Assembly: GCA_964610345.1 (NCBI GenBank)
Contig: CAZSVQ010000001.1
Location: 280-62,348 of the forward strand
Reading direction: 5' to 3'
Source of the DNA: an uncultured Candidatus Saccharibacteria bacterium
Lineage (GTDB): Bacteria > Patescibacteriota > Saccharimonadia > Saccharimonadales > JAGQNJ01
DNA length: 62,069 nt
Positions 11,617-57,492 of this stretch are shown here, in pieces. The notes under the pieces were generated by a model that was given only the letters and a program-made list of their open reading frames with translations, was not told where the DNA came from and did not search any database. Position 1 is the stretch's first letter. The number at the start of each line of letters is the position of its first letter. Made by a program: the position numbers and the translations under genes.

Positions 11617-11680
11617 AATAAGCCATAAGCATTATAATTTAGTATATCAATTTATAGAGCTAAAAGATAATAAGGAATTA

Positions 11681-11718: not shown

Positions 11719-11734
11719 AGTATATGCACTTAGA

Positions 11735-13520: not shown

Positions 13521-13526
13521 ATAACC

Positions 13527-30966: not shown

Positions 30967-31434
30967 ATGCCTAGACTCCCAATTCCTGGTCAAGACGGTG
31001 GTACCTGGGGTAACTTACTCAATGAGTATTTGAGCGTATCACACAATTCAGACGGCACTATTAAATCGTCCGCTTTGCCGCCGGCACCGACAGATGGGGC
31101 TACCGGCGCTACTGGCCCAATTGGTGCGACCGGTGTTCAGGGTATTCCTGGATCAGATGGAGCAACCGGTGCTACGGGCTCTCAGGGTGTGGTGGGAGAC
31201 CAAGGATTTACAGGAGCGACGGGCCCAACTGGCATAGCTGGTTTGCCTGGTGCCACTGGTGCTGTTGGCGCCACTGGTGCCACAGGCGATAGCGGCACCT
31301 CACGTGTTTGGTTTTATGACACAGGTGATTATATAGAAAAGCCAAATGCACGAATATTTGTTGGCCCAGTTGATCCCGGTACAGAAGGCTTTACCTTAGC
31401 TGACGGTGATATTTGGGAAGACACTAGTGCATGA
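30967..31434 (+). CDS. Short collagen-like repeat protein with the conserved N-terminal LPIPG module
   Basis: [33 protein letters not shown], then about 22 G-X-Y triplets, then a ~45 aa tail. No signal peptide. Confidence 0.7.
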
Positions 31435-32402
31435 CTCGCAAGATTAGGCAAGGTGGCCAGTGGGTACAAGTCAGTGGGGCAAATATTGATTCAGTTGAAG
31501 TAGTGCAAAATTCTGTTGACGCTATCGACCCAAGTAAACTGTATCTTATAGCAAATAGTGTTACTCCGAGTGACTTGGTAACGTTTCGTGTAAATGGCAA
31601 GCTAGGTTCTGGCATCTGGTTCGGTGGCAATGAAATGTGGGTACCACCAGTGCAAGCTGTGGGTGGTGCAGAGACTGATATTATGGTTTCTGGCACCCCA
31701 TATCGGGTTCACACCTTCACTAGTAATCTTGATTTTGAAGTACTTGTCGCTTCACTCAACGTTGAGTATCTAATTGTTGGTGCTGGCGGTAATGGTGGAA
31801 CGGCTAATTCAGTAGGTCTTTATTATTCGGGTGGTGGGGGAGGAGCGGGTGGTGATGTGTTGGCAGGAGTAATCACGCTTGGTAATGGTATTTACGCTTG
31901 CACAGCAGGGGCAGGGTCTGATTCTTCAATAGCGAGCGTAGCGACAGCCACAAAAGGGGCTAATGGAGGTGCTGGGGCAAATCCTAAGGCGGGCAACGGT
32001 GGATCGAATACTAACTACACTGGTGGCGCGGGTCCAAGTTCAGCTAGTAATGTAACCGGTGGCGGTGGTGGTGCTGGGGCATCGGCCAACGGTTCAAATG
32101 GAAGTGTTTCAGGCTCATCAGCATCACAAACAGGAGGTGCCGGGGGAGAAGGGGTGCTCTCGTCTATAACAGGAACAGCTATTGTTTATGGATCTGGTGG
32201 TGGCGGAGGACATGGATATGGCAGCTTTGGAATAGCTCGGGCAGGCGGTACCGGTGCGGGTACAGGTGCAGCAGTCAATAATGCTACTGACCCAATAGCC
32301 AATCGTGGCGGTGGTGGAGGCGGTGCTGCTGGTTACTCTGGCCCGAAGAATGCATCCAATGGTGCTGCTGGAGTTATTATTATTAGGTATCCATTAGCAT
32401 GA
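31431..32402 (+). CDS. Glycine-rich domain protein (paralog 1)
   Basis: [40 protein letters not shown], followed by long GGxGG tracts. Its start overlaps the upstream stop (ATGA). Confidence 0.6.
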
Positions 32403-32412
32403 GTATTACAAA

Positions 32413-33396
32413 GTGAGTAGCAGAAAAATCCGAAACGATGGCCAGTGGGTACAAATAGGTGGCACAGTAGATAGCGTACTGCCAATAACCCAATCTAATT
32501 ATGATGCATTGTCATCTAAAGATCCTAGTAAGATGTATGTTATTACGGATAGTGCTGGGGCAGCCTTAACGGCACAATCCTTTCGTGTCAACCAACGGCT
32601 CGTACAGAAGATAATGGTCGGAGACAATCAACTCTGGCAGCCTGTGGTTTTTGCCACCGGTGGTACAGTTACGGATATTGATGTGGGCGGTGTTATGTGG
32701 AGAGTTCATATATTTACATCGTCAGGGCAACTTGAGGTTTTACAAGATAACTTGAGTATTGAATATCTAGTTGTTGGCGGCGGTGGCGGCGGAGGTGTTC
32801 CATCCGGATACAGTGGCGGTGGCGGTGGTGCAGGGGGTTATCTTGAAGGAGCAATTTCGTTACCAATTTCTGTTATTAATATTTCTGTAGGAAACGGGGG
32901 AGCTGTTGGAAGTCAGGGTCAAAATTCTTCCATCGATTCTAGTGTGATATCGATTGGTGGTGGTGCTGGAGGAAATGGAACTTCAGGTTCTGGAGGATTG
33001 GGTGGATCTGGCGGGGGCGGAACTTATAATTTAGGTTCTGCAGGAGCTGCAACAAGTGGTCAAGGCAATCCTGGCGGTCCCGGAGCAGCAAGTGCGGGTA
33101 TAAGTGGTGGCGGTGGGGGTGCAGCTGGAAGTGGGAGCGAATACGGAAACGGTGGTAACGGACGTCAATCCTCAATTACAGGTACTCTTCAATACTATGC
33201 AGGCGGTGGTGGAGGCGGTCGCTACAGTGGCAGTAGCGGAGGACCTGGTGGTGGCGGCATCGGTGGTGGCGGCGACGGAGGCAAAGGAAGTGCAGCAGTT
33301 GCAGGGACACCAAATTCTGGCGGCGGCGGTGGCGGCGGCGGAACTGCAGCTGCAGGTGGTTCAGGTATAGTAATTGTTCGCTACCAGTTTGGCTGA
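32413..33396 (+). CDS. Glycine-rich domain protein (paralog 2, GTG start)
   Basis: RKIRNDGQWVQI..WRVHIFTSSGQLEVL..IEYLVVGGGGGGG, and it ends GSGIVIVRY as paralog 1 ends AGVIIIRY. Confidence 0.6.
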   Translation: MSSRKIRNDGQWVQIGGTVDSVLPITQSNYDALSSKDPSKMYVITDSAGAALTAQSFRVNQRLVQKIMVGDNQLWQPVVFATGGTVTDIDVGGVMWRVHIFTSSGQLEVLQDNLSIEYLVVGGGGGGGVPSGYSGGGGGAGGYLEGAISLPISVINISVGNGGAVGSQGQNSSIDSSVISIGGGAGGNGTSGSGGLGGSGGGGTYNLGSAGAATSGQGNPGGPGAASAGISGGGGGAAGSGSEYGNGGNGRQSSITGTLQYYAGGGGGGRYSGSSGGPGGGGIGGGGDGGKGSAAVAGTPNSGGGGGGGGTAAAGGSGIVIVRYQFG

Positions 33397-36117: not shown

Positions 36118-36173
36118 ACTAAATAAAAACAGCTTTTGAATGTATTAAACATAAAACTGTTTTTGATATGTTT

Positions 36174-36859
36174 TGGTGGGGGTGGTTGGAATTGAACCAA
36201 CGACCAATCGGTTATGCGTACCACTACAACTTTAGTTGCCCCTTTCGGGTTTGATGGTCTGGACTGTCTCTTCATCCTTCTTAGCCACTAAGGCTACGAA
36301 GGAGCCTGCCGTACAGTCTCTACACCTTCCCGCTGATAAGCGGGCTTGGCTCGGGATTGCCATTTTAAAGGGTTCCCCGAATTTGACAAGATATACTTAT
36401 CGGTTGCCCGATAAGCAGCCCTAAACAATTGTGCATATCTAGTATAAACTACAGTTATGAATAAAGAGTCTAGCTGCAAGATCTGTAGCAAAACCCTCAA
36501 AGGTAGACAAACATTCTTTTGCTCGATTAAATGCAAAAATGCTGCACATTAATCTTATCCAGCCCAGAATAAATGAGGGCTAGAACGCAAACTTCACTAT
36601 GTAGAGAAGCTTGGCGGAAAATGCTCAAAGTGCGGTTATGCTAAGAATCTTGCTGCTCTAGCTTTTCACCATTTGAATGGTAAAGAATTTCAGCTGGATG
36701 CCCGCGCTCTATCTAACCGTAGGTTGAATCCTATTCTAGAAGAGATCGCAAAATGCGTTCTACTCTGTCATAACTGTCATGCTGAGACACATAATCCCAG
36801 TTTAGACTTAGCTAAATTGTCAATTGAGCCGACTGCTCTAACCACTGAGCTACACCCCC
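36174..36859 (-). tRNA. tRNA with CAU anticodon (elongator Met or Ile2/lysidine type), interrupted by an intron; exons 36859..36827 and 36216..36174
   Basis: The joined exons give a perfect 76-nt cloverleaf: GGGGGTG-TA-GCTC-AGTGGTTA-GAGC-A-GTCGG-CTCATAA-CCGAT-TGGTC-GTTGG-TTCAATT-CCAAC-CACCCCC-A-CCA. G1-C72 is paired, so this is not an initiator. Overall it is closest by eye to E. coli tRNA-Ile2. Confidence 0.85.
36217..36826 (-). mobile_element. Group I (IC3-like) self-splicing intron in the tRNA anticodon loop
   Basis: The minus strand carries the conserved core strings GUCAAAUUCGGGGAACC (36371-36387), AUGGCAAUCCCGAGCCAAGCCCG (36341-36363), GGAAGGUGUAGAGACUGUACGGCAGG (36305-36330) and AAGAGACAGUCCAGACC (36256-36272). 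These closely match the Azoarcus tRNA-Ile and cyanobacterial tRNA-Leu introns. GNRA-capped hairpins are present (CUUAUCGG-GCAA-CCGAUAAG; CCC-GAAA-GGG). The exon ends in U and the intron ends in G. Confidence 0.8.
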
Positions 36860-36867
36860 TTGTATAG
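36457..36867 (+). pseudogene. Decayed HNH homing-endonuclease ORF, antisense to the intron
   Basis: A single frame reads MNKESSCKICSKTLKGRQTFFCSIKCKNAAH*SYPAQNK*GLERKLHYVEKLGGKCSKCGYAKNLAALAFHHLNGKEFQLDARALSNRR...KCVLLCHNCHAETHN. In-frame stops are TAA at 36550 and TGA at 36574. The tail of the ORF runs by chance through the tRNA 5' exon. Confidence 0.7.
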
Positions 36868-37057
36868 TTGTGAATTATATTCAACCATCATCAAGATTGT
36901 TAATAGTTAGAAAATAATTACAGAATTACAGATTATAAAGTGAACTTTATAATCTGGTGTAGCTAGGAACTTTGCTTAAATACTTAAAATTCATATGTAA
37001 GCAACAGAGTGGATTATAACAGAAAAACGATTCAGTATATAATGGTTACGGATAATT

Positions 37058-38130: not shown

Positions 38131-39138
38131 ATGCAACAGGAGCCACGCAAAAGATCATGGAATGCTGACATTGTTAATGTTCGGCGAACGTATAGCTCTA
38201 AGCCACAGACTGTTGACAGGGTGAGTATTCCAGTTAGCACCGAAAAACCAACCTCTGCTATTGGCCACTCTGCACTAAAAGCCGTAACCGAGCAAAAAAT
38301 CACCACCAAACATAGAGAAATAAAGCAGGTAGAAGATGTTGACGAGGCAACCTTGGCTGATGTATCTAAAAAGATGTATAGGCCAAATTACTACAAGCAT
38401 TCTCACAAAATACCGATGATGGATCATGTTGGCGAGCTCCGTAGGCGTGCATTATATTGTTTGATAGCACTATTTATTGGCGGAATAATTGGTTATAAGT
38501 TCCAAGACCAAATTATCGCTTGGTTGGTTAAGCCACTCGGTCAACAATTGTTTTACACCAGTCCAACTGGCGGGTTTGATTTTTTAATTAAAATTTGTTT
38601 GTTTTTTGGATTTATTTTGGCTGTGCCAGTGATAATTTATAACTTGTTTAAGTTTATCTCTCCGGCGATTCCGCCTCATGTTACTTATAGCTTTGCAAAA
38701 ATAATTTCTGTTTCTATAGTGCTGGCACTCGCTGGCGTGGCGTTTGCATATTTTGTGAGTTTGCCATCGGCACTTCACTTTTTGAATAATTTTAGCAATG
38801 ACCAAGTCTCGTCATTGATTAGTGCTCAAGAATATTTTAACTTTGTGATGATTTATATGGCCGGCTTTGCCTTGTTGTTCCAGATGCCGTTAGTCTTTTC
38901 TTTTATCAACAAAGTCAAGCCACTTAAACCCTCGCAGTTACTAAAAAAACAAAAAGTTGTTATTTTGGTAAGTTTTATTATCGCAGCAATGTTAACACCA
39001 ACACCAGACCCAATTAATCAAGCCTTAATGGCGGCGCCAATAATTGCTTTATACCAAACTTCAATTGGGGTGGTTTGGCGCGATAACAAACGCGGTTATG
39101 GCAAGCAACAGCGTAACCGGCAACTAGAATTTGCTTAA
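38131..39138 (+). CDS. tatC: Twin-arginine translocase subunit TatC (start uncertain; possible ~95 aa N-terminal extension)
   Basis: The core begins MMDHVGELRRRALYCLIALFIGG and has six TM helices. Alternative starts are at 38374, 38416 and 38419. Confidence 0.8.
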   Translation: MQQEPRKRSWNADIVNVRRTYSSKPQTVDRVSIPVSTEKPTSAIGHSALKAVTEQKITTKHREIKQVEDVDEATLADVSKKMYRPNYYKHSHKIPMMDHVGELRRRALYCLIALFIGGIIGYKFQDQIIAWLVKPLGQQLFYTSPTGGFDFLIKICLFFGFILAVPVIIYNLFKFISPAIPPHVTYSFAKIISVSIVLALAGVAFAYFVSLPSALHFLNNFSNDQVSSLISAQEYFNFVMIYMAGFALLFQMPLVFSFINKVKPLKPSQLLKKQKVVILVSFIIAAMLTPTPDPINQALMAAPIIALYQTSIGVVWRDNKRGYGKQQRNRQLEFA

Positions 39139-39144: not shown

Positions 39145-40764
39145 TTAAGCAGTCAGCATAGTAAACTCAGCAACAGTTTGTTCGTTTGGCTCGGAGTTGA
39201 TTGAAATGGTGCCGTTGATTTTGTCCAGCAGTTGTTTATCTATAAATAGGCTTAGGCCTAAACCATCATGATTATAGGTCAAAACATCTTCGCCAGTAGA
39301 AAAAGGTTTAAATAATAATTGAATATTTTCGGGCTTGATGCCAACACCATTATCAGTAATTTTTACCGTTATTTTATGGCTATTTTCAATTACAGAGATG
39401 TCAATATTGCCACCTTCTTTGCTGAAGTCAGCAGCGTTTTCTAGTAAGCTGTTTAAAATAAATGAAAATTCAGTTGCGTGAATTACCGATTTAGGCCCTA
39501 CTTTTATATCGCTTGAAACGTTGAGTTTTTTGACTTCAATAACTGATTGGTTGTTAGCTATTACTCCTGTAACAAGAGCAGAAATCGAGACCGTGCTGGC
39601 GGGTAAAGTGGCAGAAAATAGCAACTGCATCCGTTCCGACAATCTACCAAGCATAGTCAAGCTACTAGTTAAAAGTGACCTAACTTGCTGATTGGTTATT
39701 TGCTGGGCACCAGTTTGCATAGCCAAAGTAATTGATTGCAATGAGGTACCAAGCGAACGTATTATCCGGAGTCGTTTGTCTTCTAGTTCGACTGTGGCTT
39801 TTTGAATACTAACTATAACCGTGCGACGTTTATGGGTAAGGCGATTAAGCCTCAGGGCATTGGCAAAAATAAAGACGACCATAATGGCTATAACTATTTG
39901 GTATATAAAATAAGCAGATTTTGTTTCTATGCCAGTTTGAAGCAAGACCCAGTTTACGAACATACCACTTACTATTGCTAGCGAGATTGGTAAAATGAAG
40001 TACCATTTTGTAATAAAGTCTTTTAAACCAACTTTTTTAACATCATTGAGGCTAAGGAATAAACTATTGTCGGAATCATTAATAACTTCCATAGCAGCAT
40101 AATCAATTGTAGTGGCTAAATCCAGGACGGTTGGTTTTAAAGTACTAATGGCAGTGGGTTCTGGAGGTTGAGCTTTTTCGAGCAATTCTATACTACTTTT
40201 TGAGGTTGCCAAAGGTGTGTTGAGGTGGTGAAGAACCAGACGCATAAAACTTTTTTGCTCGGCTAACTTGGCTTGGAGCTTTTTAATTAACAGTAGGATT
40301 TTGTTGATTTTGTGCTTGTCTAGCATTGCCTGCAGTAGTAATATTAGAGCTAATAATGCTAGTAATAGCCAGCTATAAAATGGTAACTGGCGTTTTTGCG
40401 CTTCTGGCAAATCATTAATTAGATTAATTAATGGATTTAAAAATGAGAAGCCCTTTACTGGTTGTGCTATTTGGTTTGGTGAAGCAGATTGCTTAGGCCT
40501 AGTCGGAGGTGTTGGTGTAGTATTATTTACAGGTTGTGGAGGTGGGTCTGGATCTTCTGGTGGTTGGGGAGGCTCTGGCGGTTCTGGTGGCTGAGGGGTG
40601 GTTGGGCAGGCTTGGCCATAAGCACACTGGCCATAAGCATCTTGCCCAAATTGGGCAAAGGTAGTTGATGTTGTTGCTAAAAATACCAATGTTGTAACTA
40701 CCAAAAACATCAACAGATTTAGCAGAGATTTGTTTATGGCTTTAAAGCTAATGAATATTTGCAT
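39145..40764 (-). CDS. Orphan sensor histidine kinase with Pro-rich extracytoplasmic N-terminus
   Basis: I placed the start at the internal Met (MQIFISFKAINKSLLNLLMFLVV...) because the longer ORF, which runs to 40827, would abut tatA (starting 40830) with no room for a promoter. It has an H-box (LVLHHLNTPLA) and HATPase_c N/G boxes (LENAADFS, DNGVGI, GLGLS). Confidence 0.7.
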   Translation of the reverse strand: MQIFISFKAINKSLLNLLMFLVVTTLVFLATTSTTFAQFGQDAYGQCAYGQACPTTPQPPEPPEPPQPPEDPDPPPQPVNNTTPTPPTRPKQSASPNQIAQPVKGFSFLNPLINLINDLPEAQKRQLPFYSWLLLALLALILLLQAMLDKHKINKILLLIKKLQAKLAEQKSFMRLVLHHLNTPLATSKSSIELLEKAQPPEPTAISTLKPTVLDLATTIDYAAMEVINDSDNSLFLSLNDVKKVGLKDFITKWYFILPISLAIVSGMFVNWVLLQTGIETKSAYFIYQIVIAIMVVFIFANALRLNRLTHKRRTVIVSIQKATVELEDKRLRIIRSLGTSLQSITLAMQTGAQQITNQQVRSLLTSSLTMLGRLSERMQLLFSATLPASTVSISALVTGVIANNQSVIEVKKLNVSSDIKVGPKSVIHATEFSFILNSLLENAADFSKEGGNIDISVIENSHKITVKITDNGVGIKPENIQLLFKPFSTGEDVLTYNHDGLGLSLFIDKQLLDKINGTISINSEPNEQTVAEFTMLTA

Positions 40765-40829
40765 GGTTTGTTTTTTTGAGTTATGCTTAACAGTATAAAC
40801 TAAATGAAGAAGAGAGGGAATATTCATAT

Positions 40830-41003
40830 ATGTTTGGTTTAGGCGTACCAGAACTATTAATCATCTTATTGATTCTTTTGCTTTTGTTTGGAGCCAGCCG
40901 CTTACCAAAGTTGTCTAAGTCGCTTGGTGAATCAGCACGAGAACTCCGTAAAGGGCTAAACGACGACCCACACGGCAAAGACGATTCAAAAGAAAAAAGC
41001 TAA
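40830..41003 (+). CDS. tatA: Twin-arginine translocase subunit TatA/E (57 aa, below the ORF-track cutoff)
   Basis: Translated by hand: MFGLGVPELLIILLILLLLFGASRLPKLSKSLGESARELRKGLNDDPHGKDDSKEKS. This is the canonical TatA TM, hinge and amphipathic helix. Confidence 0.85.
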   Translation: MFGLGVPELLIILLILLLLFGASRLPKLSKSLGESARELRKGLNDDPHGKDDSKEKS

Positions 41004-41035: not shown

Positions 41036-41368
41036 GTGGCTTACACACCAAAAGTTTTATTTGCGACAGGCTATCCGTCGACAACTGGTACGGTATTGTA
41101 TACTGTGCCAGTCGGCGCTAGTGCTATTGTAAAAAATGTTGTTATGACTAATACTACCAGCGTTGATGCTTGGGTGCATCTTTCTGTTGTTCCTCAAGGT
41201 GATTCCTCGCAAGCATCGAACCGTATTCTGGCGGCATACAACGTCCCACCTAATGGTATTTCTACTTTAGATTGTAGTATTGTCGTACCGTCTCAAAGCT
41301 ATTTACACGCTACTAATGGAACTAATAATGCTGTTACCATGACAATTTCTGGAGTGGAGATAACCTAA
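41036..41368 (+). CDS. Small beta-rich protein, first gene of the fibre-like operon (GTG start)
   Basis: 110 aa after the [13 protein letters not shown]. Alternating beta-strand pattern (TVLYTVPVGASAIVKNVVMTN...VTMTISGVEIT). No signal peptide. Confidence 0.55.
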   Translation: MAYTPKVLFATGYPSTTGTVLYTVPVGASAIVKNVVMTNTTSVDAWVHLSVVPQGDSSQASNRILAAYNVPPNGISTLDCSIVVPSQSYLHATNGTNNAVTMTISGVEIT

Positions 41369-41369
41369 T

Positions 41370-41864
41370 ATGGCCGTCAATAGTAGTTTAAATGCGGTTG
41401 ATCCAAGGCCAGTTGTCAGGCGATTGATTGGGCAAGTTAGTGGCTTATCTACTAGTGGCGCAAACTATAGCCCTAATAATCAGATGGGCGGTGAAATCAC
41501 ATTTGCCATGGCTACTAGGGCTTCAGGAGGCTACGGCACAGTAACTACGGCTACAATAATAGATACGGCAAATGTTATCGGCGCGGTAGATTTACATTTG
41601 TTTAGCTCTAGCATTACACCTGCTAATGATAAATCTGCAACCAATTTTTCAGACAGTGCTATGACTCAAAATTATATGGGTACAATATCTTTTCCAGCAC
41701 CAACATCGTTTACTAATAATCGCGGAATCAGCCTATCGGCGATAGGGCTAACGTATAATTGTACATCAACAATTTTATATGGATACCTAACGACACTAAC
41801 ACAACACGGTATCTTTAATTCCGCAACTGACATAACTATCAGCTTAACTACATACCAGTACTAA
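41370..41864 (+). CDS. Beta-rich hypothetical protein (164 aa)
   Basis: Starts 1 nt after the upstream stop. No signal peptide and no recognised family. Confidence 0.5.
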   Translation: MAVNSSLNAVDPRPVVRRLIGQVSGLSTSGANYSPNNQMGGEITFAMATRASGGYGTVTTATIIDTANVIGAVDLHLFSSSITPANDKSATNFSDSAMTQNYMGTISFPAPTSFTNNRGISLSAIGLTYNCTSTILYGYLTTLTQHGIFNSATDITISLTTYQY

Positions 41865-41866
41865 TC

Positions 41867-43093
41867 ATGGCGCTTAATAATAATCTGCCTATTTTACCTC
41901 TAAGACCAAGCGATGCCAACTCTCAGTTTCTTGCTAAAAATCTTATCTTGGCGTATCCAATGCTCTACGGGGGTAATACTCTTAAGAACTATGGATCATT
42001 AGGCGCCCAGGCAGATCTTAACTTAAGTAATGTCAGTAGGGTTCGTCAGAACGGCATAACGAGCCTGTCATTTAACGGAACTTCATCAATAGCGAGCAAT
42101 GCAACCATAAATATGACTGTGCCCCAAAAATGGTCATTCGCTTATTGGGTAAAATTTAATGGTTCGCCTTCGGCAGAGACTAGTTTGTTGACGCTACAGG
42201 GCCCAACTGAAGGGCATTTGCGGGCATGGGCAGATGGTCAAGGTATTTGGGCTTGGCAAAAGCATTCTATCGCCGATGCTTATTCTATTTTGCCAACTAG
42301 TGACTTCCCCACAAACAATACTATGTTAGTTATAGCAGTTTATGACGACCCATTATTGCCACCTGCTCAACTACGAACAAATCAAGGATTAACAAATCAT
42401 CCTTCACAACCGCAATCTTATACAGTTTTTAACGAAGCAACTGGGTCTCCTCTGACTACCGTAAATAGTATATATATTGGTGGCGGGCCTGGTAATTCAA
42501 AATTATTTAATGGTGTTCTGGGACCGGTTTATGTTTGGAGCCGGCCTTTATCTGAGTCAGAGATCTGGCAACTATGGCAGGACCCTTATGCACCGTTTAG
42601 GCGAAATACAGAACAATTAGTTACTCCATCTACTATGGTCAGTTCACAAGGCTCGAGCTTGCAGGGTATCGGTAAATCTACCGGATCATCACCCGTTATA
42701 TCTGATAATTCAGCTTTAGTTATTGGAATTGATGATAATTTAGTAGAACGCAACTATGTAAATGATGGAACTTCTTTAATCAATAGATTCAATGATGATC
42801 TCTACATAAACGATTACTATAATTACCAGGATGTTGCATTAGACTCACTTATGACTGAGTTGACTACACCACCAGAGATTAATATTGTAGATGATTATAG
42901 CTATGCAAATATTCCAAATGACCAGGTCATTGTTAATTCATCAAACATTGGGATAATTGATATTCAAGATAGTTTTCAGTTTGTTTCTGTTCCGACAGAT
43001 TCAGTACTTGTAGAATCTAGTGGAGTATCTACTGTAAGCATAAATGACGATGTGGCATATGTTTCAGAGCCTGGAGAGCAGATAATTATATAA
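41867..43093 (+). CDS. LamG (concanavalin-like lectin) domain protein with an acidic repeat C-terminus
   Basis: WSFAYWVKFNG...LFNGVLGPVYVWSRPLSESEIWQLW is typical of Laminin_G_3. The C-terminus has about three ~20 aa I/V-x-D-rich repeats. Confidence 0.6.
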   Translation: MALNNNLPILPLRPSDANSQFLAKNLILAYPMLYGGNTLKNYGSLGAQADLNLSNVSRVRQNGITSLSFNGTSSIASNATINMTVPQKWSFAYWVKFNGSPSAETSLLTLQGPTEGHLRAWADGQGIWAWQKHSIADAYSILPTSDFPTNNTMLVIAVYDDPLLPPAQLRTNQGLTNHPSQPQSYTVFNEATGSPLTTVNSIYIGGGPGNSKLFNGVLGPVYVWSRPLSESEIWQLWQDPYAPFRRNTEQLVTPSTMVSSQGSSLQGIGKSTGSSPVISDNSALVIGIDDNLVERNYVNDGTSLINRFNDDLYINDYYNYQDVALDSLMTELTTPPEINIVDDYSYANIPNDQVIVNSSNIGIIDIQDSFQFVSVPTDSVLVESSGVSTVSINDDVAYVSEPGEQIII

Positions 43094-43117
43094 AATAGGG
43101 TAAAATAGACGTAAGCA

Positions 43118-44515
43118 ATGAGCCAACAAATACTAAATGACTATATGCCTAACAAGCAAAATGTAGCCGGATTAAAGGGTAGTGTTACTGTGCAGTTATT
43201 TGATGCAAAGTCTAAAAAAGTCCTAGTAGATTATACTAGCGATAACTTTATAGCAAATTTTGCTAAGGAGTATTTTGCTTACCTTGAAAGAGTTAATTTT
43301 AATAGTCAAATGAATAGTTTGTCTCCAAATAGTAATTCTGACATAGCGCCTTATAGTTCTTCGCTAACTGCATTGGTGTTGTCTGATTGTGCAGATAGTC
43401 CTGATCCAGATAACGAATGGATGCTTGCCGGCAATTTGGTTGGCTATTCTACGAAAGCAAATTATTCTGGTGCAGACACAATGCGAGGTACACCTAATGG
43501 GCAATTCTGTGAAACTTCTACTACATCAACTAAGTGGGTTTTTGACTGGCCAACACATTCAGCAAATGGAACAATCAAGTCCATAAGTTGGATGGCAGAA
43601 AATTATCAGGCTTTTTCAAACAATGGCAACGGAAGAGTCCTTAATCTGCCCACAGTTTTAAATAATGGCTCAACTTTGTTAAAGCATAGGGTTGCTCCTT
43701 TTAGCAATAATCAACCAATTTCGCTCATCTCAAACAATCGTCTTGCAACTGGTCAAGGAACTACCGTAAGTGTGTTTGAAGAAAACAATACACCAGTTAC
43801 AACCTTTACTACAATAAGTTGCAGTGGATTAACGTGGGATAAAATAAATGAAAAATTATGGGTAATTAGTGGCAATCAAATTGCATCATACACCCAATCT
43901 GGTTCGATAGTCGATAGTCCTATAAGTATTACACCTAGATCTTATCGGGGCTTAACTTTTGATGGTACTGACCTGTGGACAATAGCAAGTGGTGTTGTAT
44001 ATAGAATATCTCTAGCTGGAGTAGATGTTTCAAGTTTTACACCTAGCTTCGGTACATTAGGAAATTCTAATACATATATAGGAGATGTAGTTTGGGATAA
44101 TTTTAGGTCGGTGTTAATAGTTTTAGCTATTGGCTATAGTTCTTGGAGGTATGGTTTTGGATATGCAACTAATCATGATTATGTTCTTTGCACTCAACAC
44201 TATAATAAAACGGGGGTGGTTTTATCTATGGGAACTTGTATTAACCCTTGGAATGGAAGTAGGAATATATTCACCTTGAACGCAGGGACAGATAGCGGTT
44301 ATGGGGGATCTGCTAGTGATGTGTATAGATATTTTGACATAAAAAGTCCAGATACATTTGCGGTTACTGTGTATTCCGGATCTTTATATCCAACAGGTAA
44401 TCGTATAATGGATATCCGTGCCGATGGCATGGGCTCACGTATTTTATTGCCAAGCCCAATTACTAAAACAAGTGCTCACACGTTCAGGGTTTCTTATACT
44501 CTTACTTATGCCTAA
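43118..44515 (+). CDS. Fibre/adhesin-like paralog A (conserved N- and C-terminal blocks, central propeller-like repeats)
   Basis: Shares KGS(V/I)TV.LF.AK, TKWVFDWPTHSANGTI, LWVISG.QIASY, RSYRGLT(F/Y)DG.DLW and DG(M/L)G...LLPSP(I/V)TK with the next two genes. Confidence 0.6.
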   Translation: MSQQILNDYMPNKQNVAGLKGSVTVQLFDAKSKKVLVDYTSDNFIANFAKEYFAYLERVNFNSQMNSLSPNSNSDIAPYSSSLTALVLSDCADSPDPDNEWMLAGNLVGYSTKANYSGADTMRGTPNGQFCETSTTSTKWVFDWPTHSANGTIKSISWMAENYQAFSNNGNGRVLNLPTVLNNGSTLLKHRVAPFSNNQPISLISNNRLATGQGTTVSVFEENNTPVTTFTTISCSGLTWDKINEKLWVISGNQIASYTQSGSIVDSPISITPRSYRGLTFDGTDLWTIASGVVYRISLAGVDVSSFTPSFGTLGNSNTYIGDVVWDNFRSVLIVLAIGYSSWRYGFGYATNHDYVLCTQHYNKTGVVLSMGTCINPWNGSRNIFTLNAGTDSGYGGSASDVYRYFDIKSPDTFAVTVYSGSLYPTGNRIMDIRADGMGSRILLPSPITKTSAHTFRVSYTLTYA

Positions 44516-44573
44516 TAACCGAACATGTTTTAAACATAATAAATAAAAGTTATACTATTAAAGAATTAAATAT

Positions 44574-45827
44574 ATGTCACAAGATACATTAAATATAACA
44601 AATTTGATAAACAAAATTAAAGGCAGTATTACTGTTGAATTATTTAATGCAAAAACCGGTAAATGTGTTTTAGTAAATAAAGACAATAATTTTATTGCCT
44701 TACCTGGTGTTGATTATTTACGATCCATTCAACGTATAAATTTTAAAAGTACTATGGAATCGTTATATGCGGGGAGTGATACAGATGTTTCTTTGACTAG
44801 TCCTTTCCAGGTTATTTCTCTTTCTACTAATGTTAGTGCTGTTGATCAATCTAAAGAAAGAATAATGCCAGGAATACCTGTAGGATATTCAAATAAAGCT
44901 ACATATTCTGGAAGCGATTCAATGCGGGGCACTCCTAATGGATTATTGTGTAGTACATCACCAACTTTTACAAAATGGGTTTTTGACTGGCCAACACATT
45001 CAGCAAATGGAACAATTGGATCAATTGGGTGGACTATTAACAACACTGCACATACAACACGAATAATAAATTCGTCAAATTTACCACAGTATCCAGCAGC
45101 AAATTCTATATACGTCGCAATTTTACCCCCAGATAAATTTATTGTTGGTAACGGAACAAATATCAAAATTTTTAACAAGGGTGATCTTTCGGAAATTGCT
45201 AATTTTACGGCTATTTCAGCAAATGGTTTAGCATGGGACTCAGCTAACAATAAAATTTGGGTTATAAGTGGCACTCAGATAGCATCGTATGATCAAACTG
45301 GTACTGTGGTAGACTCGCCCATTACAGTTGCCTCAAGATCTTATCGGGGCTTAACATATGATGGATCCGATTTATGGACAACCAATGGCTCAGTTTTGTA
45401 TAAGATTAGTACTTCAGGTACGGACATCAATTCTTATACTAATACTTTAACTACTGAATCTGGTAGCGGGTACGGACAATATATAACTGACGTCGCATGG
45501 GATAATAGAGCTCAGCAAATTCGTATTCTTCATGCTGCATTTAGGGGTGGTGGCTATAATGATTACTATCGTTTGGTGTCGTTAGGCGACATAACTGGCG
45601 GTACATTAGCTAATTATCATGTTGTATTTCCGATTATGTATGGTGGTAATCCCTATCGTTGTTTTGATATCGATCCAAATAATCAAGATATTTTGATACG
45701 TTTCAACAGTACTAATTTTGAAACTAGAGTAGTAGATGGGTTAGGTACATTAGTTTTATTGCCAAGCCCAGTAACAAAAAATAACACACAAACTTTGCGT
45801 GTTACCTATCAAATAGACTACAATTAA
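44574..45827 (+). CDS. Fibre/adhesin-like paralog B
   Basis: Same block structure as paralog A. 417 aa. No signal peptide. Confidence 0.6.
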   Translation: MSQDTLNITNLINKIKGSITVELFNAKTGKCVLVNKDNNFIALPGVDYLRSIQRINFKSTMESLYAGSDTDVSLTSPFQVISLSTNVSAVDQSKERIMPGIPVGYSNKATYSGSDSMRGTPNGLLCSTSPTFTKWVFDWPTHSANGTIGSIGWTINNTAHTTRIINSSNLPQYPAANSIYVAILPPDKFIVGNGTNIKIFNKGDLSEIANFTAISANGLAWDSANNKIWVISGTQIASYDQTGTVVDSPITVASRSYRGLTYDGSDLWTTNGSVLYKISTSGTDINSYTNTLTTESGSGYGQYITDVAWDNRAQQIRILHAAFRGGGYNDYYRLVSLGDITGGTLANYHVVFPIMYGGNPYRCFDIDPNNQDILIRFNSTNFETRVVDGLGTLVLLPSPVTKNNTQTLRVTYQIDYN

Positions 45828-45837
45828 GGTAAGTATT

Positions 45838-47106
45838 ATGAAAAATAATTATGCTAAACAATTTGAAGGAAAACTTTGGTTAGAGCTACGAAATGGAAAT
45901 ACAGGAAAAGTTGAAAATAAAATATCAGTAAAGAACTTTGCAGCTAATCAAACAAATGAATATGGTAAATGGCTGCAAAGGAACTCTTTTAAAACGGGAC
46001 TAAGTGCACTTGGTGTTACGGATACTGATTATTCACCACATCAAGCAGCCAACGCAATGGTATTAACTGATTCAACGCTAGTAGAAGATCCTTCGGGTGA
46101 ATGGTATATGCCTGGAAAAACTATAGGATACGCTATTAAAGCAACATATGCCGGAACGGATATTTGGCGAGGTACAGTAGCTACAACACAATTACAGGCA
46201 ACATCTGCATTAACAAAATGGACCTTCGATTGGCCTACACACGCAGGTAATGGGACAATTGGCTCTGTTGGGTGGGTTGATTCTCAATCGCAAGGATTAT
46301 CAGCAACAGAACCTATTTTTAGATCGACAATGACTATACTATCTGGGCACGGTAGCACAGGTAACTGGAATAATTTTGCGCGAGCCAATAGTTCAACAGC
46401 ATTTGGCAACACAGGCAACACAGTAATTTATGTATTAGATGGTTTAAGTTATGCACAAACTACAACATTCAATGTTAATGCACAATTTACGGCTGTTCGT
46501 GGCATTGCTTGGGACTCTGGCAATAACTTTCTTTGGGTGATCGGTGATAACAGTTCTGTCCGACGAATTGCTGCGTATAATTCATCTGGTGTATTGCAGA
46601 CAGGCCCTTTTGTGGTAACTACAAGGTCGTATATAAGGTTGGCGTATGATGGGTCAGCACTTTGGAGTATCACCCAAGATAGCGGTTCAAATCATACAGC
46701 CTGGAAGTTAAATACCTCAGACGGGTCAGATATGACTAACTTCCCTTTTGTTACAAATACATCTTCAGTTGTTTGCGGTTTAGCTTGGAATGATAATACA
46801 AATACACTTTGGATGCGCTATTCTGGTACAACGGGGTTTCAAGCTTGGGATACAAGTGGTAATAAAAAAGCAGTCGAGATATCTACAAGTGCATTTACAC
46901 CAAGTGCAGGCAATTATGCAAGTAATTTAAATTCTGGTTTAGATTTTGATTTTATTAATAGTTATGAAATTGCCGTTTCTCAAGCAACAAATACTGTCTA
47001 TAAGTGCCGATTAGATGGCATGGGTACGCGTGCTTTATTGCCAAGCCCTGTAACAAAAAATAACACACAAACTTTAAAATTAATCTACCAAATAAACTAT
47101 ACTTAA
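45838..47106 (+). CDS. Fibre/adhesin-like paralog C
   Basis: TKWTFDWPTHAGNGTI, LWVIGDNS, RSYIRLAYDGSALW and DGMGTRALLPSPVTKNNTQTLKLIYQINYT. Confidence 0.6.
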   Translation: MKNNYAKQFEGKLWLELRNGNTGKVENKISVKNFAANQTNEYGKWLQRNSFKTGLSALGVTDTDYSPHQAANAMVLTDSTLVEDPSGEWYMPGKTIGYAIKATYAGTDIWRGTVATTQLQATSALTKWTFDWPTHAGNGTIGSVGWVDSQSQGLSATEPIFRSTMTILSGHGSTGNWNNFARANSSTAFGNTGNTVIYVLDGLSYAQTTTFNVNAQFTAVRGIAWDSGNNFLWVIGDNSSVRRIAAYNSSGVLQTGPFVVTTRSYIRLAYDGSALWSITQDSGSNHTAWKLNTSDGSDMTNFPFVTNTSSVVCGLAWNDNTNTLWMRYSGTTGFQAWDTSGNKKAVEISTSAFTPSAGNYASNLNSGLDFDFINSYEIAVSQATNTVYKCRLDGMGTRALLPSPVTKNNTQTLKLIYQINYT

Positions 47107-47118: not shown

Positions 47119-47643
47119 TTAAGATCCTAAAACTTGATTATTAAATAATTTGATTACCTGATCTTTTGCTAGTTTACTTTTTGTAATTGCTACAAAATAT
47201 CTATCATTTAGAATATATGCTGAATTACCACTCAGTAATGCTTCATCTTTAATGTCGGTTATTGTTATTTTGTTAGTTAAATTAGCTGTTTGAGCTTCCC
47301 AGGCTTCATTGACAATTTGTGAATTATTATCTTTAGAATACTTAATAACTATTTGTATATTGTTTTCTGATAACTCGTCTTTGGATTTGAAAGTGCAAGT
47401 ATCGCTACTTAAGCCACCGTTTATACTGGCTTTGGTCGTACTCGGTTTTTCGTAATCAATGTTAAATATTGACTTTAACTCTTCAGGAGTAATTTTGTTA
47501 CAAATATCTTTTTCCTGAGTGTTATTAATAGAGACAACCTCTTGCTTGACAGGGGCTTTTTTATTAGTTGATAATCTCCATACACCAAAAGCTAAGATTG
47601 GTATTAATATAATGGCGCCGAATATTAATATTCTTTTCTTCAT
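47119..47643 (-). CDS. Membrane-anchored or secreted hypothetical protein
   Basis: MKKRILIFGAIILIPILAFGVWRL signal/anchor. 174 aa. Confidence 0.45.
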   Translation of the reverse strand: MKKRILIFGAIILIPILAFGVWRLSTNKKAPVKQEVVSINNTQEKDICNKITPEELKSIFNIDYEKPSTTKASINGGLSSDTCTFKSKDELSENNIQIVIKYSKDNNSQIVNEAWEAQTANLTNKITITDIKDEALLSGNSAYILNDRYFVAITKSKLAKDQVIKLFNNQVLGS

Positions 47644-47751
47644 ATTGTTATTTTATGCAATTAACACAAGCAATGTAAAGTAGCTTGACAAGAATTGGCA
47701 GGGTGGTTACCATGTAAATGGTTAATTAAAAAATAAAAAACCAAAAATAAA

Positions 47752-47982
47752 ATGAACAATTTAGATAACATACAGCAGTTAATGGCTCAAGAAGTTTCGC
47801 GCCGGCAGTTTTTGTTACATACTGGAACTGCATTGTTGGCAATTTTTGGCATTTCGGGTTTAATACGTAATTTAAATTCTATATTTCCACAAAAGGTTGA
47901 TGAATCAGGTGCTTATGGCTGGAATGGATATTCTGGGATAGCAGGCAAAAAAAGCTCTTTGCAAAAGGCAGGTAAATTGTAA
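47752..47982 (+). CDS. 76-aa protein consisting mostly of a twin-arginine (Tat) signal peptide
   Basis: ..AQEVSRRQFLLHTGTALLAIFGISGLI.. matches S-R-R-x-F-L plus an h-region. Its stop overlaps the next start (TAATG). Confidence 0.55.
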   Translation: MNNLDNIQQLMAQEVSRRQFLLHTGTALLAIFGISGLIRNLNSIFPQKVDESGAYGWNGYSGIAGKKSSLQKAGKL

Positions 47983-48680
47983 TGGCACGCTTACCAATTC
48001 CTGGTCAAGATATCGGTACTTGGGGTCAGGTTTTAAATGAATTTTTAAATGTTGGACATAACCCTGATGGTACTCTAAAAATAAGTACTACGCCAGAAAC
48101 TCCAGATGCAAACTCGACTACCAAAGGTAAGCTACGCTTAGCTGGTGATCTTGGAGGTACGGCAGATAGCCCCACAGTTACATCAACCTCATTAACCTCG
48201 GCACTACCGATAAATCAAGGTGGTACAGGTTCGACAACGCAAAACTTTGTAGACATTACAAACAATCAAACCATTGGTGGAACAAAAAGTTTTAGCAGTA
48301 CAGTAAATGCTAGTATAAACGGCACGGCAGACAATGTTACTGGTGTTGTAGCTATCACCAACGGAGGTACCGGCTCTAACACCAAAAATTTTGTTGACCT
48401 TACAACCAATCAAACAATTGCTGGCAGTAAAACCTTTTCTGACGTGATTATTGGTGATATTGCTGGGAATTCTAATAACGTAAATGGGGTTGTGGCTATC
48501 ACCAACGGTGGTACCGGGCAAACTACCCCCGACGCAGCTCTAAATGCGTTACTGCCAAATCAAACAGGCAATAACGGCAGAGTATTGCAAACCGATGGCG
48601 CAACTGCTACCTGGGTTCAACCAGCCACAACAAATCTTGACGATATTTATGCTTTGCAGTGGATGGTAGTCGGCGCCTAA
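47982..48680 (+). CDS. Tail-fibre-like repeat protein with the conserved N-terminal LPIPG module
   Basis: [33 protein letters not shown], then ~44 aa repeats I(T/N)(N/Q)GGTGS.T.NFVD(I/L)T.NQTI.G.K.FS. It ends ..LQTDGATATWVQP.. . No signal peptide. Confidence 0.65.
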   Translation: MARLPIPGQDIGTWGQVLNEFLNVGHNPDGTLKISTTPETPDANSTTKGKLRLAGDLGGTADSPTVTSTSLTSALPINQGGTGSTTQNFVDITNNQTIGGTKSFSSTVNASINGTADNVTGVVAITNGGTGSNTKNFVDLTTNQTIAGSKTFSDVIIGDIAGNSNNVNGVVAITNGGTGQTTPDAALNALLPNQTGNNGRVLQTDGATATWVQPATTNLDDIYALQWMVVGA

Positions 48681-53671: not shown

Positions 53672-55507
53672 ATGTCTAAGCATAACCGACAATCACAAAG
53701 AATGAGATATTTCAGCACCTTAGCTGGGCCATATCAAAAATTACAAAGAAAACACCCATATAAAGTAAGCTACAGTAAGCTTAATAGTAAAGACAATATA
53801 TTGTATCGTTTTTGGGTAATAGCAATGGCATATATGTCTTTAGGGATAGTGCTAGCGTTTACGGCTGTTTTGTTTCGACCCGAGCATTGGATAATTAGGC
53901 TTCAGCCTGAATCATCGCTACATACATGGAATTTGTTAATGTTGGTGTGTTTGGTTATGTTGCAGATTTTTGTGATTATTGGTACTATTTCGGCCACTAG
54001 ATCAACGCTAAAAGCTCGTAATCCAATTCCGGTCCGGCCACCTAGAGGGTTGCGTGTAGCATTTGTGACTACTCGTGCTCCCGGGGAGCCGATAGATTTA
54101 GTGCGCACCACTTTAGAGGCCGCCAAAAGGGTACGTTACAAACAGGGCACGGTAGAGGTGTGGCTACTTGATGAAACTAAGGATCCTGCGCTAAAAACTC
54201 TGTGCAGACAAACTGGCGTAAAATACTTCAGCCGAAAAAATGTAGCTAAATGGAATACTTTAAAGCCAAAATCAAAACTACATCGTTTATATGCTATCGG
54301 AAGTAAAAATGGTAAAAACTACATCAAGCCAGATCAATTTTATGCGACACGAACAAAGCACGGTAATTTTAATGCGTGGTTAGCTTATTTAGAGAGCAAG
54401 CATATTAGATATGATATCTTGGCGGGGGTAGATACTGACCATGTTCCGGAACCGAACTTCTTAGAGCGCATTTTGGGCTATTTTCGTGATGATGATGTTG
54501 CGTTTGTGGTTGGTCCACAAGTTTATGGTAATTATACTGTTGGTGCTAGCGGATTGGTTACACGGTGGGCTGAATCGCAGGCATCGTTTTTTCAAAGTAC
54601 AATTCAGCGTGCCGGTAATGCTAGTAAATCGCCGATGTTTGTGGGCACAAATTACGCTGTAAGAATACCGGTGTTGCAACAAATAAGAGGTTTCCAGCCG
54701 TGCATAACTGAGGATATGGCAACAGGTTTAGCTATTCACGCTAGTCAAAATCCAAGTACTGGCAATCACTGGGAGTCGGTCTACACGCCCGATGTACTGG
54801 CAGTGGGTGAGGGTCCGGAAGCCTGGGCGCCATTCTTCACGCAACAATGGCGCTGGGCAGGTGGGTCTTTTGATACTTGGCGATGCATAGTCTGGAAACT
54901 AGGGTATCGTATTCCGTTCAGAGCAATGTTGCACTATCTATTGATGCTCGTTTACTATCCAATTTCTGCTTTAACATGGATTTTAGCAGTTGCAAGTAGT
55001 TTAATGTATTTGACGACAGGGGCTACAGCTATTCTTGCTCCTTGGGGAATGTTTATGGCGTTATATCTTATGTCGATGGTGATGCAGTTGAGCTTATATT
55101 TTTGGAACCGTCGCTTTAATGTGTCGCCACACGAGCCAGAAGGTTCTTACGGAGTAGCGGGCATGGTTATGTCTTCTTTGGTTGCCCCGGTATACTCTTC
55201 GGCTCTGATGGGAATACTAGTGGGTAAAAAACCAAATTTTGTAGTTACTGCTAAAGGTGGTGGTGCTAGTTTGGATCGGTGGACGGCATTTAGAGTGCAC
55301 TTGCAATGGGCAATAATATTAGCAGTGGCGTTAGGTTATGGTATTTATGCCAAAAATGATCACCCGGCAATGCTTATTTGGGTCGGGTGCCTACTGGCTG
55401 TTTGCTTGTTGCCATGCGTATTGGCTTTGAATTTGTCTATGAAGAGTTGGTCGCAAAACCTAATTATTAAATTGAGGCCTGAATCGAAAGGAGTTCACCA
55501 TGCATAA
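53672..55507 (+). CDS. cslA: Cellulose-synthase-like family 2 glycosyltransferase (CslA-like)
   Basis: Polytopic, with GT2 motifs DTDH (DxD), ITEDMATG (TED) and QQWRWAGG (QxxRW). It overlaps the downstream gene by 8 nt. Confidence 0.8.
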   Translation: MSKHNRQSQRMRYFSTLAGPYQKLQRKHPYKVSYSKLNSKDNILYRFWVIAMAYMSLGIVLAFTAVLFRPEHWIIRLQPESSLHTWNLLMLVCLVMLQIFVIIGTISATRSTLKARNPIPVRPPRGLRVAFVTTRAPGEPIDLVRTTLEAAKRVRYKQGTVEVWLLDETKDPALKTLCRQTGVKYFSRKNVAKWNTLKPKSKLHRLYAIGSKNGKNYIKPDQFYATRTKHGNFNAWLAYLESKHIRYDILAGVDTDHVPEPNFLERILGYFRDDDVAFVVGPQVYGNYTVGASGLVTRWAESQASFFQSTIQRAGNASKSPMFVGTNYAVRIPVLQQIRGFQPCITEDMATGLAIHASQNPSTGNHWESVYTPDVLAVGEGPEAWAPFFTQQWRWAGGSFDTWRCIVWKLGYRIPFRAMLHYLLMLVYYPISALTWILAVASSLMYLTTGATAILAPWGMFMALYLMSMVMQLSLYFWNRRFNVSPHEPEGSYGVAGMVMSSLVAPVYSSALMGILVGKKPNFVVTAKGGGASLDRWTAFRVHLQWAIILAVALGYGIYAKNDHPAMLIWVGCLLAVCLLPCVLALNLSMKSWSQNLIIKLRPESKGVHHA

Positions 55508-57482: not shown

Positions 57483-57492
57483 AGAAACCGAT

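Follow-up and report, generated by a model that had tools for sequence, protein, structure and literature searches.

We analysed a stretch of 62,069 nucleotides, referred to below as the window, from contig CAZSVQ010000001.1 (assembly GCA_964610345.1) of an uncultured Candidatus Saccharibacteria bacterium. Our subject is a module of eight genes, g1 to g8, which lies directly downstream of tatA and codes for proteins resembling phage tail and receptor-binding proteins (RBPs), accompanied by a small protein with a twin-arginine-type N-terminus (Table 1). A preliminary description, made from the sequence alone, had treated g1 to g6 as a six-gene operon. The six open reading frames (ORFs), all on the forward strand, were verified at their positions, and coordinates and alignment bore out the gaps between successive genes from tatA to g6 (32, 1, 2, 24, 58 and 10 nt) as well as the paralogy and motifs of g4 to g6. 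The operon as first drawn is too short: the unit extends past position 47106 and comprises g1 to g6, g7 and g8, and it is embedded in a frame made up of tatC, a membrane histidine kinase, tatA and g7. The opposite-strand gene between g6 and g7 codes for a 174 amino acid protein without a family match in Pfam and PADLOC searches. It was seen only in the window and in two other loci (L009 and L114; loci are cited by such numbers where they must be told apart), and it is lineage-specific and probably not a part of the module. No hydrophobic N-terminal or internal segment was found in the products of g1 to g6, where the highest 19-residue Kyte-Doolittle mean was below 1.4. The earlier statement that export signals are lacking is therefore correct for these six proteins and incorrect for the next ORF of the unit, g7, which has an export-type N-terminus.

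Table 1. Genes of the module and of its immediate surroundings (positions are those of the window; aa, amino acids; HK, histidine kinase; Tat, twin-arginine translocation).
Feature	Position	Strand	Product and remarks
tatC	38131..39138	+	Pfam TatC, E 5e-55; part of the resident Tat/HK frame
membrane histidine kinase	39145..40827	-	Pfam HATPase_c; divergent neighbour of g1
tatA	40830..41003	+	57 aa; Pfam TatA_B_E, E 8.6e-14; 32 nt 5' of g1
g1	41036..41368	+	110 aa, GTG start; all-beta, homolog of a small phage tail-tip protein
g2	41370..41864	+	164 aa; predicted jelly-roll beta-sandwich, stand-alone domain of fibre-tip type
g3	41867..43093	+	408 aa; LamG/concanavalin-like domain and acidic repeats; candidate scaffold
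g4	43118..44515	+	465 aa; paralog of RBP family, N/C frame and beta-propeller
g5	44574..45827	+	417 aa; paralog of RBP family, the member modelled with AlphaFold
g6	45838..47106	+	422 aa; paralog of RBP family, ortholog of the last paralog everywhere
174-aa gene	47119..47643	-	N-terminal hydrophobic segment; between g6 and g7
g7	47752..47982	+	76 aa; twin-arginine-type N-terminus, AYG...YS tail; proposed Tat escort/anchor
g8	47982..48680	+	232 aa; tail-fibre-like, N-terminal adaptor domain

The g4, g5 and g6 proteins consist of a conserved frame around a variable centre, as had been proposed. Pairwise identity is 34-46% in the N-terminal block, 20-35% in the centre, where alignments contain 47-65 gapped columns, and 38-61% in the C-terminal strands; overall, g5 shows 39% identity with g4 and 31% with g6. 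The motifs TKW(V/T)FDWPTH(S/A)(A/G)NGTI and DG(M/L)G...LLPSP(I/V)TK are present in all three. An AlphaFold model of g5 (pLDDT 85.9, pTM 0.81) confirms the propeller-like centre suggested earlier. Its Foldseek matches in the PDB were beta-propellers throughout, the best fit being to five-bladed glutaminyl cyclases (TM-score 0.64-0.67 over approximately 260 columns), and a profile of the paralogs found only propeller repeats in the PDB, among them those of Vgb lyase. An antisense ORF of 142 amino acids within g5 (44846-45274, reverse strand) is without support and probably spurious.

The resemblance to phage receptor-binding proteins noted at the outset proved to be real homology. All three paralogs matched the phrog_25763 profile over most of their length (g4, E 1.2e-20; g5, 3.7e-22; g6, 9.5e-20), a family annotated in PHROGs as of unknown function and for which we found no functionally characterised member. 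The top viral Foldseek matches of g5 were full-length uncharacterised Siphoviridae proteins. In a tblastn search 97% of g5 was covered by a homolog in Clostridium phage CWou-2020b (QPW62294) which, like its counterpart in Geobacillus phage GBSV1 (gp33), is encoded by the last tail gene, the order in both phages being tape measure, Dit, Tal, paralog homolog and holin/lysin. Among 80 IMG/VR contigs carrying the paralog family, a Tal homolog lies directly 5' in 43, Dit upstream in 40, the tape-measure protein (TMP) in 49, and lysis genes downstream in 33; these counts are lower bounds, since only the tail and lysis proteins of CWou-2020b and GBSV1 served as queries. Many of the phage relatives align over residues ~15-153 only and differ in their distal part. 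At the level of sequence, a conserved N-terminal part joined to a swapped distal part is the usual modular design of RBPs.

None of the 80 viral contigs has relatives of g1, g2, g3, g7 or g8 beside the paralog family, which indicates that the combination of genes in the module is specific to Saccharibacteria. Close relatives of the paralogs were found only in metagenome-assembled genomes of Candidatus Saccharibacteria, in agreement with the original guess of an organism of the candidate phyla radiation (CPR). There are three paralogs in the window and in L009, and two in most genomes. The g4 protein is 68% identical to its ortholog in L009, while g6 is 84% identical to the last paralog of L009 and 40-58% identical to that of other lineages. 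Two side observations concern this family. In the JGI contig of L116 (L116:4945-6295) the first paralog is broken into ORFs of 196 and 268 amino acids, either through a frameshift or pseudogene formation or through an assembly error. A distant member (26% identity) lies on an apparent phage contig (L007/L008, ENA YUYA23-1 scaffolds) along with numerous small ORFs and genes for a 3138 amino acid protein, an N6/N4 methyltransferase and a helix-turn-helix regulator. The contig may derive from a phage whose host is uncultured, and the 113 amino acid ORF just 5' of the family member is not g1-like.

The preliminary description had not been able to place any of the proteins in a family. Besides g4 to g6, g1 can now be placed, again in a PHROG of unknown function (phrog_1276, E 4e-8). 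A tblastn search with g1 detected small ORFs in 46 phages, 41 of Streptomyces and five of Ralstonia, and in Streptomyces phage phiScoe1 the homolog directly follows Dit and the hub. The genes 3' of that homolog were considered as counterparts of g2 and g3 and found to be unrelated (hhalign probability <1%). Orthologs of g1 are 51-85% identical, with a nonsynonymous divergence per site (pN) of 0.088 against L009.

That g2 is all-beta is upheld by its AlphaFold model (pLDDT 86.8), a jelly-roll which weakly matched viral capsid jelly-rolls, C1q/TNF heads, the Bc2L-C lectin and a Bdellovibrio fibre tip in Foldseek. While a word-indexed search with g2 returned only 27 close orthologs, and a metagenome scan five loci only, an exhaustive profile search returned 2165 representative clusters. 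In these the domain mostly forms the C-terminal ~150 residues of proteins of 150-981 amino acids with fibre-like repeats, for whose N-terminal parts no usable Pfam or PHROG annotation was found. A stand-alone homolog is present in an uncultured podophage (hhalign probability 96.9%), where the 117 amino acid ORF 5' of it is not g1-like, and a marginal match adjoins a minor tail protein in N4-like Rhizobium phages.

The g3 protein passes the Pfam Laminin_G_3 model (PF13385; 39.6 bits against a gathering score of 27.6), its residues 71-233 spanning profile positions 3-150 of 151. The LamG domain had thus been named correctly, whereas the acidic repeats behind it, first given as ~20 residues long, have a period of ~25 amino acids; there are four to five of them, with the pattern I(T/S)I.D.Y.Y...PTD, and they are kept in six orthologs. 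No sequence relatives of g1, g3 or g8 were found in the PDB.

The N-terminus of g7 reads SRRQFLL followed by an 18 amino acid Gly-rich hydrophobic stretch, and the protein ends in a conserved AYG...YS tail. It is the only one among the window ORFs of at least 50 amino acids with R-(R/K)-x-F-L and a hydrophobic stretch behind it, and it shows the Tat-signal motif, (S/T)-R-R-x-F-L-K with a moderately hydrophobic h-region. Motif, Gly-rich h-region and tail are kept in nine orthologs, and the g7 ORFs that follow paralogs are 76-85 amino acids long. All nine match the NCBIfam family NF038009, "twin-arginine translocation system-associated protein" (E 1e-4 to 3e-13). With nine more distant relatives there are 18 g7-like proteins, which match NF038009 over nearly its full length with E values down to 1.8e-15. 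Literature searches found no published description of this family. Promoter and terminator scans of the sequence gave counts no better than those of shuffled sequence and were uninformative; the sole plausible promoter-like site lies at 47685-47713, 5' of g7.

The stop codon of g7 overlaps the start of g8 by one base, and the overlapping junction is conserved, which suggests translational coupling. g8 has a conserved 35 amino acid N-terminal adaptor domain, repeats of the DUF5907/BppL_N type and a conserved C-terminus; it matched Pfam DUF5907 and BppL_N below threshold and PHROG minor tail and tail fibre families with E values of ~2e-6. Orthologs measure 130-232 amino acids, the shortest versions (130-134 amino acids) being those at L004:13111-13503 and L006:12970-13374. 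In the window and L009 an internal expansion of 96 amino acids corresponds to two extra units of ~48 residues (NGGTG..T.NFVD.T.NQTI.G.K.F...), and the equivalent in L112 has 601 amino acids.

In nearly all loci a g7-like gene stands directly 5' of a g8-type gene, and the protein encoded after g7 is without a signal and begins M.RLP..G.D.G.WG..LN..L...N.DGTLK. The partner varies: in L118, where the pair lies beside tatA-tatC, it is a 511 amino acid beta-helix of the pectate-lyase type, a fold typical of phage tailspikes, and in L117 a 436 amino acid DUF5907 fibre. The adaptor domain of g8 is also found at the start of a collagen-like protein from Streptomyces phage BRock and of two collagen-triple-helix proteins of the window without signal peptides (15601-16401 and 30967-31434, the latter on the forward strand). 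Phage-fibre-like proteins that share this adaptor thus form a family in the genome. As to the surroundings of the two collagen-like genes of the window, the first lies divergently to pilB, a gene of the type IV pilus cluster, and the second has a sortase gene 5' and two Gly_rich_2 genes 3' (31431-32402 and 32413-33396), whose products have N-termini matching Pfam Phage_tail_C. In L112 a second adaptor-domain fibre of 515 amino acids is encoded upstream of g1, and extra genes (131, 516 and 125 amino acids) lie between the 601 amino acid g8-type fibre and a displaced g7-like ORF (L112:8845-11182); from these extra fibre genes it follows that the module can grow by the addition of fibre genes.

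The order g1-g2-g3-paralogs-g7-g8 recurs in at least 13 independent Saccharibacteria loci, across which g1 and g2 are 50-85% identical to those of the window. All eight window ORFs are intact. Compared with the closest relative, L009, synonymous divergence is saturated (pS at least 0.7), with pN 0.09-0.20 for the module and 0.13 for tatC; owing to this saturation dN/dS was not computable and pN/pS is reported instead, the value for the kinase being unreliable because of fragmented high-scoring segment pairs. We read these data as those of a module which is maintained, vertically inherited and under purifying selection. One close relative, L119 (ENA ERZ28614961 scaffold_197, 5566-14977), keeps the synteny of the window in the order DivIC, tatC, kinase, tatA, g7, P-type ATPase, a 125 amino acid ORF and ClpB, without g1 to g6, the 174 amino acid gene and g8. 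It is a natural presence/absence variant of the module.

Could the module be no more than the functionless, decaying remnant of the tail region of an old prophage? Its components are of phage ancestry, its first paralog is split in L116, and it is missing from the otherwise syntenic L119. Against this stand eight intact ORFs, synteny in at least 13 loci with g1 and g2 only 50-65% identical, pN values of 0.09-0.20 at saturated synonymous sites, similar to that of tatC, the conserved g7/g8 overlap, and a composition which is not atypical. Because of the conserved synteny and the low pN at saturated pS, we do not regard the module as a decaying prophage, and the remnant explanation is strongly disfavoured, to the point of being hardly credible.

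Tat genes and g7 are linked to the module. In 10 of the 13 loci tatA and/or tatC are found no more than ~3 kb away from it, in at least five arrangements: tatC, kinase, tatA, module; tatA, kinase, module, tatC; module, tatA, tatC; module, tatC; and, in L116, the module followed ~1.3 kb downstream by tatC and tatA on the opposite strand. They also adjoin g7-like genes in L118 and L119, and the tatA product of L009 is 94% identical to that of the window. Tat has been reported to be rare in Saccharibacteria (PMC6031116). The route of export, which the preliminary description had left unexplained, is thus partly accounted for by the twin-arginine-type g7 and the recurrent Tat genes, with export itself being what we infer from them.

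In 11 of the 13 loci the histidine kinase gene adjoins g1 in divergent orientation, and the module-less L119 keeps it. The kinase is built of a Sec-type signal, an ectodomain with the motif YG...YG.C.YG..CP, a Pro-rich and acidic linker, one transmembrane helix and a kinase domain. The motif (ectodomain residues ~59-76, right after the Sec signal) is conserved in nine orthologs and resembles the AYG...YS tail of g7. A fibronectin type III (fn3) protein beside the g7-like/tailspike-like pair of L118 (L118:7016-7966) likewise starts with the YG-rich sequence STYGYGKYGANIYGIGTYP. Such peptides may be shared docking epitopes or a coincidence; with so short a motif they are a lead only.

The neighbourhood can also be read in another way, namely that a resident Tat locus made up of g7, tatA, tatC and the kinase gene has nothing to do with the phage-like genes, which were merely inserted there and whose products are cytoplasmic or otherwise released. 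The frame without module in L119, the module without frame in L024, and the resemblance of g7 to a family named only for its association with Tat would fit such a history. It sits poorly with a linkage that persists through at least five rearranged layouts, and with the finding of g7-like genes directly followed, in several loci with an overlap, by adaptor-domain fibre or tailspike-like genes in three unrelated contexts, one of which (L118, beside tatA-tatC) has a different cargo. We consider chance insertion unlikely.

A Pfam scan of the ~60 window proteins found no capsid, portal, terminase, tube, tape-measure or integrase gene, as had been stated for the head, tail-tube and integrase genes. 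No TMP, Dit, Tal, tube, portal, capsid or lysis genes were found in the window or in the 10-kb flanks of the 13 module loci, and neither of the window tRNAs (at 28067 and 37917) adjoins the module. The remaining genes are cellular: ComEC, YebC, RuvCAB, a type IV pilus cluster, RecA/RecX, TsaE/TsaB, RNase Y, sortases, DivIC, TatC, the histidine kinase, TatA, a P-type ATPase, ClpB, a family 2 glycosyltransferase (GT2) and GlxA-like pair, a family 6 glycoside hydrolase (GH6), a penicillin-binding protein and O-antigen ligase. The 62-kb window is ordinary chromosome. At the outset, confident matches to a tail module together with flanking phage genes had been named as what would speak against a cellular apparatus; the matches were found, the flanking phage genes were not. 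For want of such flanking genes, and given the conserved chromosomal synteny, the module is not a prophage, and an integrated prophage was rejected, there being no head, tube or integrase genes in 62 kb.

Nor do the window and the locus flanks contain the cluster of tube, tape measure, Dit/Tal and lysis genes that marks an F-type tailocin. A particle whose genes are distributed would be a different matter: the module could be the receptor-binding end of an F-type tailocin or of a particle like a gene transfer agent (GTA), with tube, TMP, Dit/Tal and lysis genes elsewhere and with release by lysis, not by Tat. The phage relatives of g1 and g4 to g6 are baseplate-distal proteins that normally dock on Dit/Tal, g1 to g6 and g8 are all signal-less, orphan phage-fibre-like genes are scattered in the window (15601, 30967 and 31431-33396), and GTAs keep fibre genes apart from their main cluster. 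Yet none of these tail and lysis genes, and no portal or capsid gene either, accompanies the module in the 62 kb or in the 10-kb flanks of the 13 loci, the repeated linkage to Tat and g7 would be left unexplained, and Saccharibacteria genomes of ~0.7-1.5 Mb offer little room for such an element. We give a distributed particle a small probability, similar to that of chance insertion.

PADLOC gave no match for g1 to g8 at E <= 0.01, and only the generic ATPase domain of the kinase was matched. This bears on a role in anti-phage or self-protection, in which the RBP-like proteins would coat or mask the cell's own receptors, or act as decoys, and thereby keep related phages from adsorbing, in the manner of superinfection exclusion. 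Such a role would be in keeping with the homology to phage RBPs, the diversified paralogs and the presence/absence polymorphism among close relatives. Apart from the missing PADLOC matches, the nearest phage relatives have their hosts among Bacillota and Streptomyces and not in the CPR, and the neighbours show no defence-island signature. We regard self-protection as very unlikely, less probable than either chance insertion or a distributed particle.

The explanation that we favour, and to which we would give about an even chance, is that of a domesticated phage-derived receptor-binding module, Tat-exported with g7 as escort or anchor, and chromosomally fixed in a clade of environmental Saccharibacteria. 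The phage ancestry of g1, g2, g4 to g6 and g8, the modelled propeller (g5) and jelly-roll (g2) folds, the conservation, synteny and purifying selection of the module and its linkage to Tat genes and g7 are shown by the analysis, and complex formation, Tat export, surface location and recognition of a ligand or host are proposed on these grounds. g4 to g6 would be diversified RBPs of a siphophage family, in which the N- and C-terminal attachment frame holds a variable, approximately five-bladed propeller as the likely glycan-binding part. g1 as a tail-tip adaptor homolog, g2 as a jelly-roll tip or head domain, and g3, with its LamG lectin domain and acidic repeats offering possibly several docking sites, might form a base or scaffold; with g8 as a short tail-fibre-like protein, the whole would be a tube-less recognition complex.

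Like the components of a phage tail, the signal-less parts would already be folded and assembled within the cytoplasm. The twin-arginine signal would come from g7, whose AYG...YS tail would hold the adaptor domain of g8-type fibres, an arrangement known as hitchhiker export. The Tat translocase would then carry the complex over the membrane, where g7 might remain as an anchor or be cleaved. Outside, the complex could offer the epibiont a choice of two or three lectin specificities, directed at glycopolymers in the cell walls of its hosts or of competing bacteria, and the neighbouring histidine kinase may regulate or sense it.

Several points weigh against this explanation. The g7 orthologs have RR in five of nine cases and RK in four, and RK is often a poor Tat signal. 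The 18 g7-like proteins score 22-57 bits with NF038009, for which the curated cutoff is 100, so that g7, going by its sequence, is a distant relative of the family and not a member by the curated criterion. TIGR01409 gave 12.8-13.4 bits, below its cutoff of 16.7, in three of the nine orthologs; a Pfam scan of g7 that included TAT_signal gave no match; and no clear signal-peptidase site is conserved among the orthologs. In L006/L010 and L024 the 10 kb on either side of the module contain no Tat gene, and the ~12-kb contig of L112 has none either; L024 lacks g7 and the kinase as well. Frame and module are separable, since L119 keeps the frame without the module, and the link to Tat is direct only for g7-g8, that of g1 to g6 being one of gene neighbourhood. 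Relatives of g3 were found neither in phage genomes nor in the PDB or PHROGs. Finally, a trimeric 45-50-kDa RBP complex would be in the upper size range of known Tat cargo.

A broader proposal, which we advance tentatively and hold to be clearly less probable than the favoured explanation, is that of an undescribed export and display system. Here the mini-protein of 60-85 amino acids, hardly more than a twin-arginine signal with a short AYG...YS tail, would be a detachable Tat signal or membrane anchor for pre-folded, signal-less fibres of phage origin, tailspike-like proteins and propeller lectins, all with a common N-terminal adaptor domain. The kinase, with its similar YG...YG peptide, could sense engagement of the display device.

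The domesticated module is related most closely to the distal tail modules of siphophages. g4 to g6 are homologs of the product of the last tail gene of GBSV1 and CWou-2020b, the combination of a conserved attachment part and an exchangeable distal part is that of siphophage RBPs, and the g1 homologs of Streptomyces siphophages come after the hub. Staphylococcus phage phi11 Gp45 also contains a five-bladed propeller, a likeness at fold level only, with no sequence relation detected; there it is the receptor-binding platform for the GlcNAc of wall teichoic acid (PMC4901313). Unlike the modules of siphophages, it is not accompanied by genes for Dit, Tal, tape measure, tube or capsid or by a lysis cassette. 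It occupies a conserved chromosomal position, has two or three tandem paralogs, and is associated with Tat genes and with the genes of an RR mini-protein and a histidine kinase.

With F-type tailocins and monocins the module would share the retention by bacteria of phage tail parts for interbacterial recognition, and the specificity of tailocins is set by RBPs (PMC11830787). Tailocins keep tube, tape measure, Dit/Tal and lysis cassette, however, none of which was found in the window. Bdellovibrio bacteriovorus, likewise a bacterium living on bacteria, recognizes its prey with a repertoire of phage-fibre-like mosaic adhesive trimer (MAT) fibres with variable tips (PMC10769870), and the g2 model weakly matches the Bd2734 tip domain (Foldseek, TM-score ~0.26). 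No sequence homology to MAT was detected. The variable elements of the module are framed propellers and not long trimeric fibre tips, and its proposed export route is Tat.

The umbrella toxin of Streptomyces targets actinobacterial cell-wall glycopolymers with diversified propeller lectins on a repeat scaffold, a form of bet-hedging (PMC13274773). The four to five repeats of g3 and the two or three propeller paralogs could work alike, by analogy only; no UmbC-like toxin, long coiled-coil stalk or UmbA trypsin-like domain was found in the module, and Umb proteins have their own secretion signals. In Tat hitchhikers (HybOC, DmsAB, PaoABC) one subunit carries the twin-arginine signal and signal-less partners are co-exported, as is established for PaoABC (PMC4273604). 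g7 resembles such a signal subunit in its motif and its near full-length match to NF038009, but the known signal subunits are full-size cofactor-binding redox proteins and not mini-proteins of 60-85 amino acids, and the known cargo consists of redox enzymes and not of phage-like fibres. The parts of the module are therefore of known kinds: phage proteins of the RBP slot, jelly-roll tips, tail-fibre repeats, LamG and Tat. Literature searches found no published description of the module itself, a tube-less receptor-binding module fixed in a CPR chromosome among Tat genes, a mini RR-protein and a sensor kinase.

Two other features of the window deserve mention. The reverse strand carries a group I catalytic intron at 36236-36457 (full-length match to Rfam RF00028 with 60.9 bits), in an ORF-free gap of ~940 nt (36118 to 37057); a split tRNA as its host was not found with ARAGORN, introns being allowed. 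The GT2 glycosyltransferase, the GlxA-like radical copper oxidase (GlxA beta-barrel, Kelch and galactose-oxidase E-set domains) and the opposite-strand GH6 glycoside hydrolase are grouped at 53672-58638. This group resembles the cslA-glxA-cslZ locus of Streptomyces, which serves to make a cellulose-like glycan; in a CPR genome such a locus would be unusual.

How CPR bacteria (Patescibacteria) recognize and attach to their hosts is largely unexplained. In cultivated Saccharibacteria genetic support for a part in attachment exists only for type IV pili and a few adhesins (PMC10633639, PMC12206443). With two or three diversified propeller RBP homologs, the locus provides testable candidates for host recognition in environmental Saccharibacteria. 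It also raises the question of whether Tat, by way of a signal-only mini partner, can export phage-like fibres that have folded and oligomerised in the cytoplasm; if so, Tat hitchhiking would have gained a new use, and the domestication of phage parts a new route. Annotation would be gained for dark families, namely the g2 jelly-roll (more than 2000 unannotated representative clusters), phrog_25763 and the NF038009-like proteins. If the broader proposal of a Tat-based display system is true, ultrasmall epibiotic Saccharibacteria would display a phage-style host-recognition device of multiple specificities without a phage tail.

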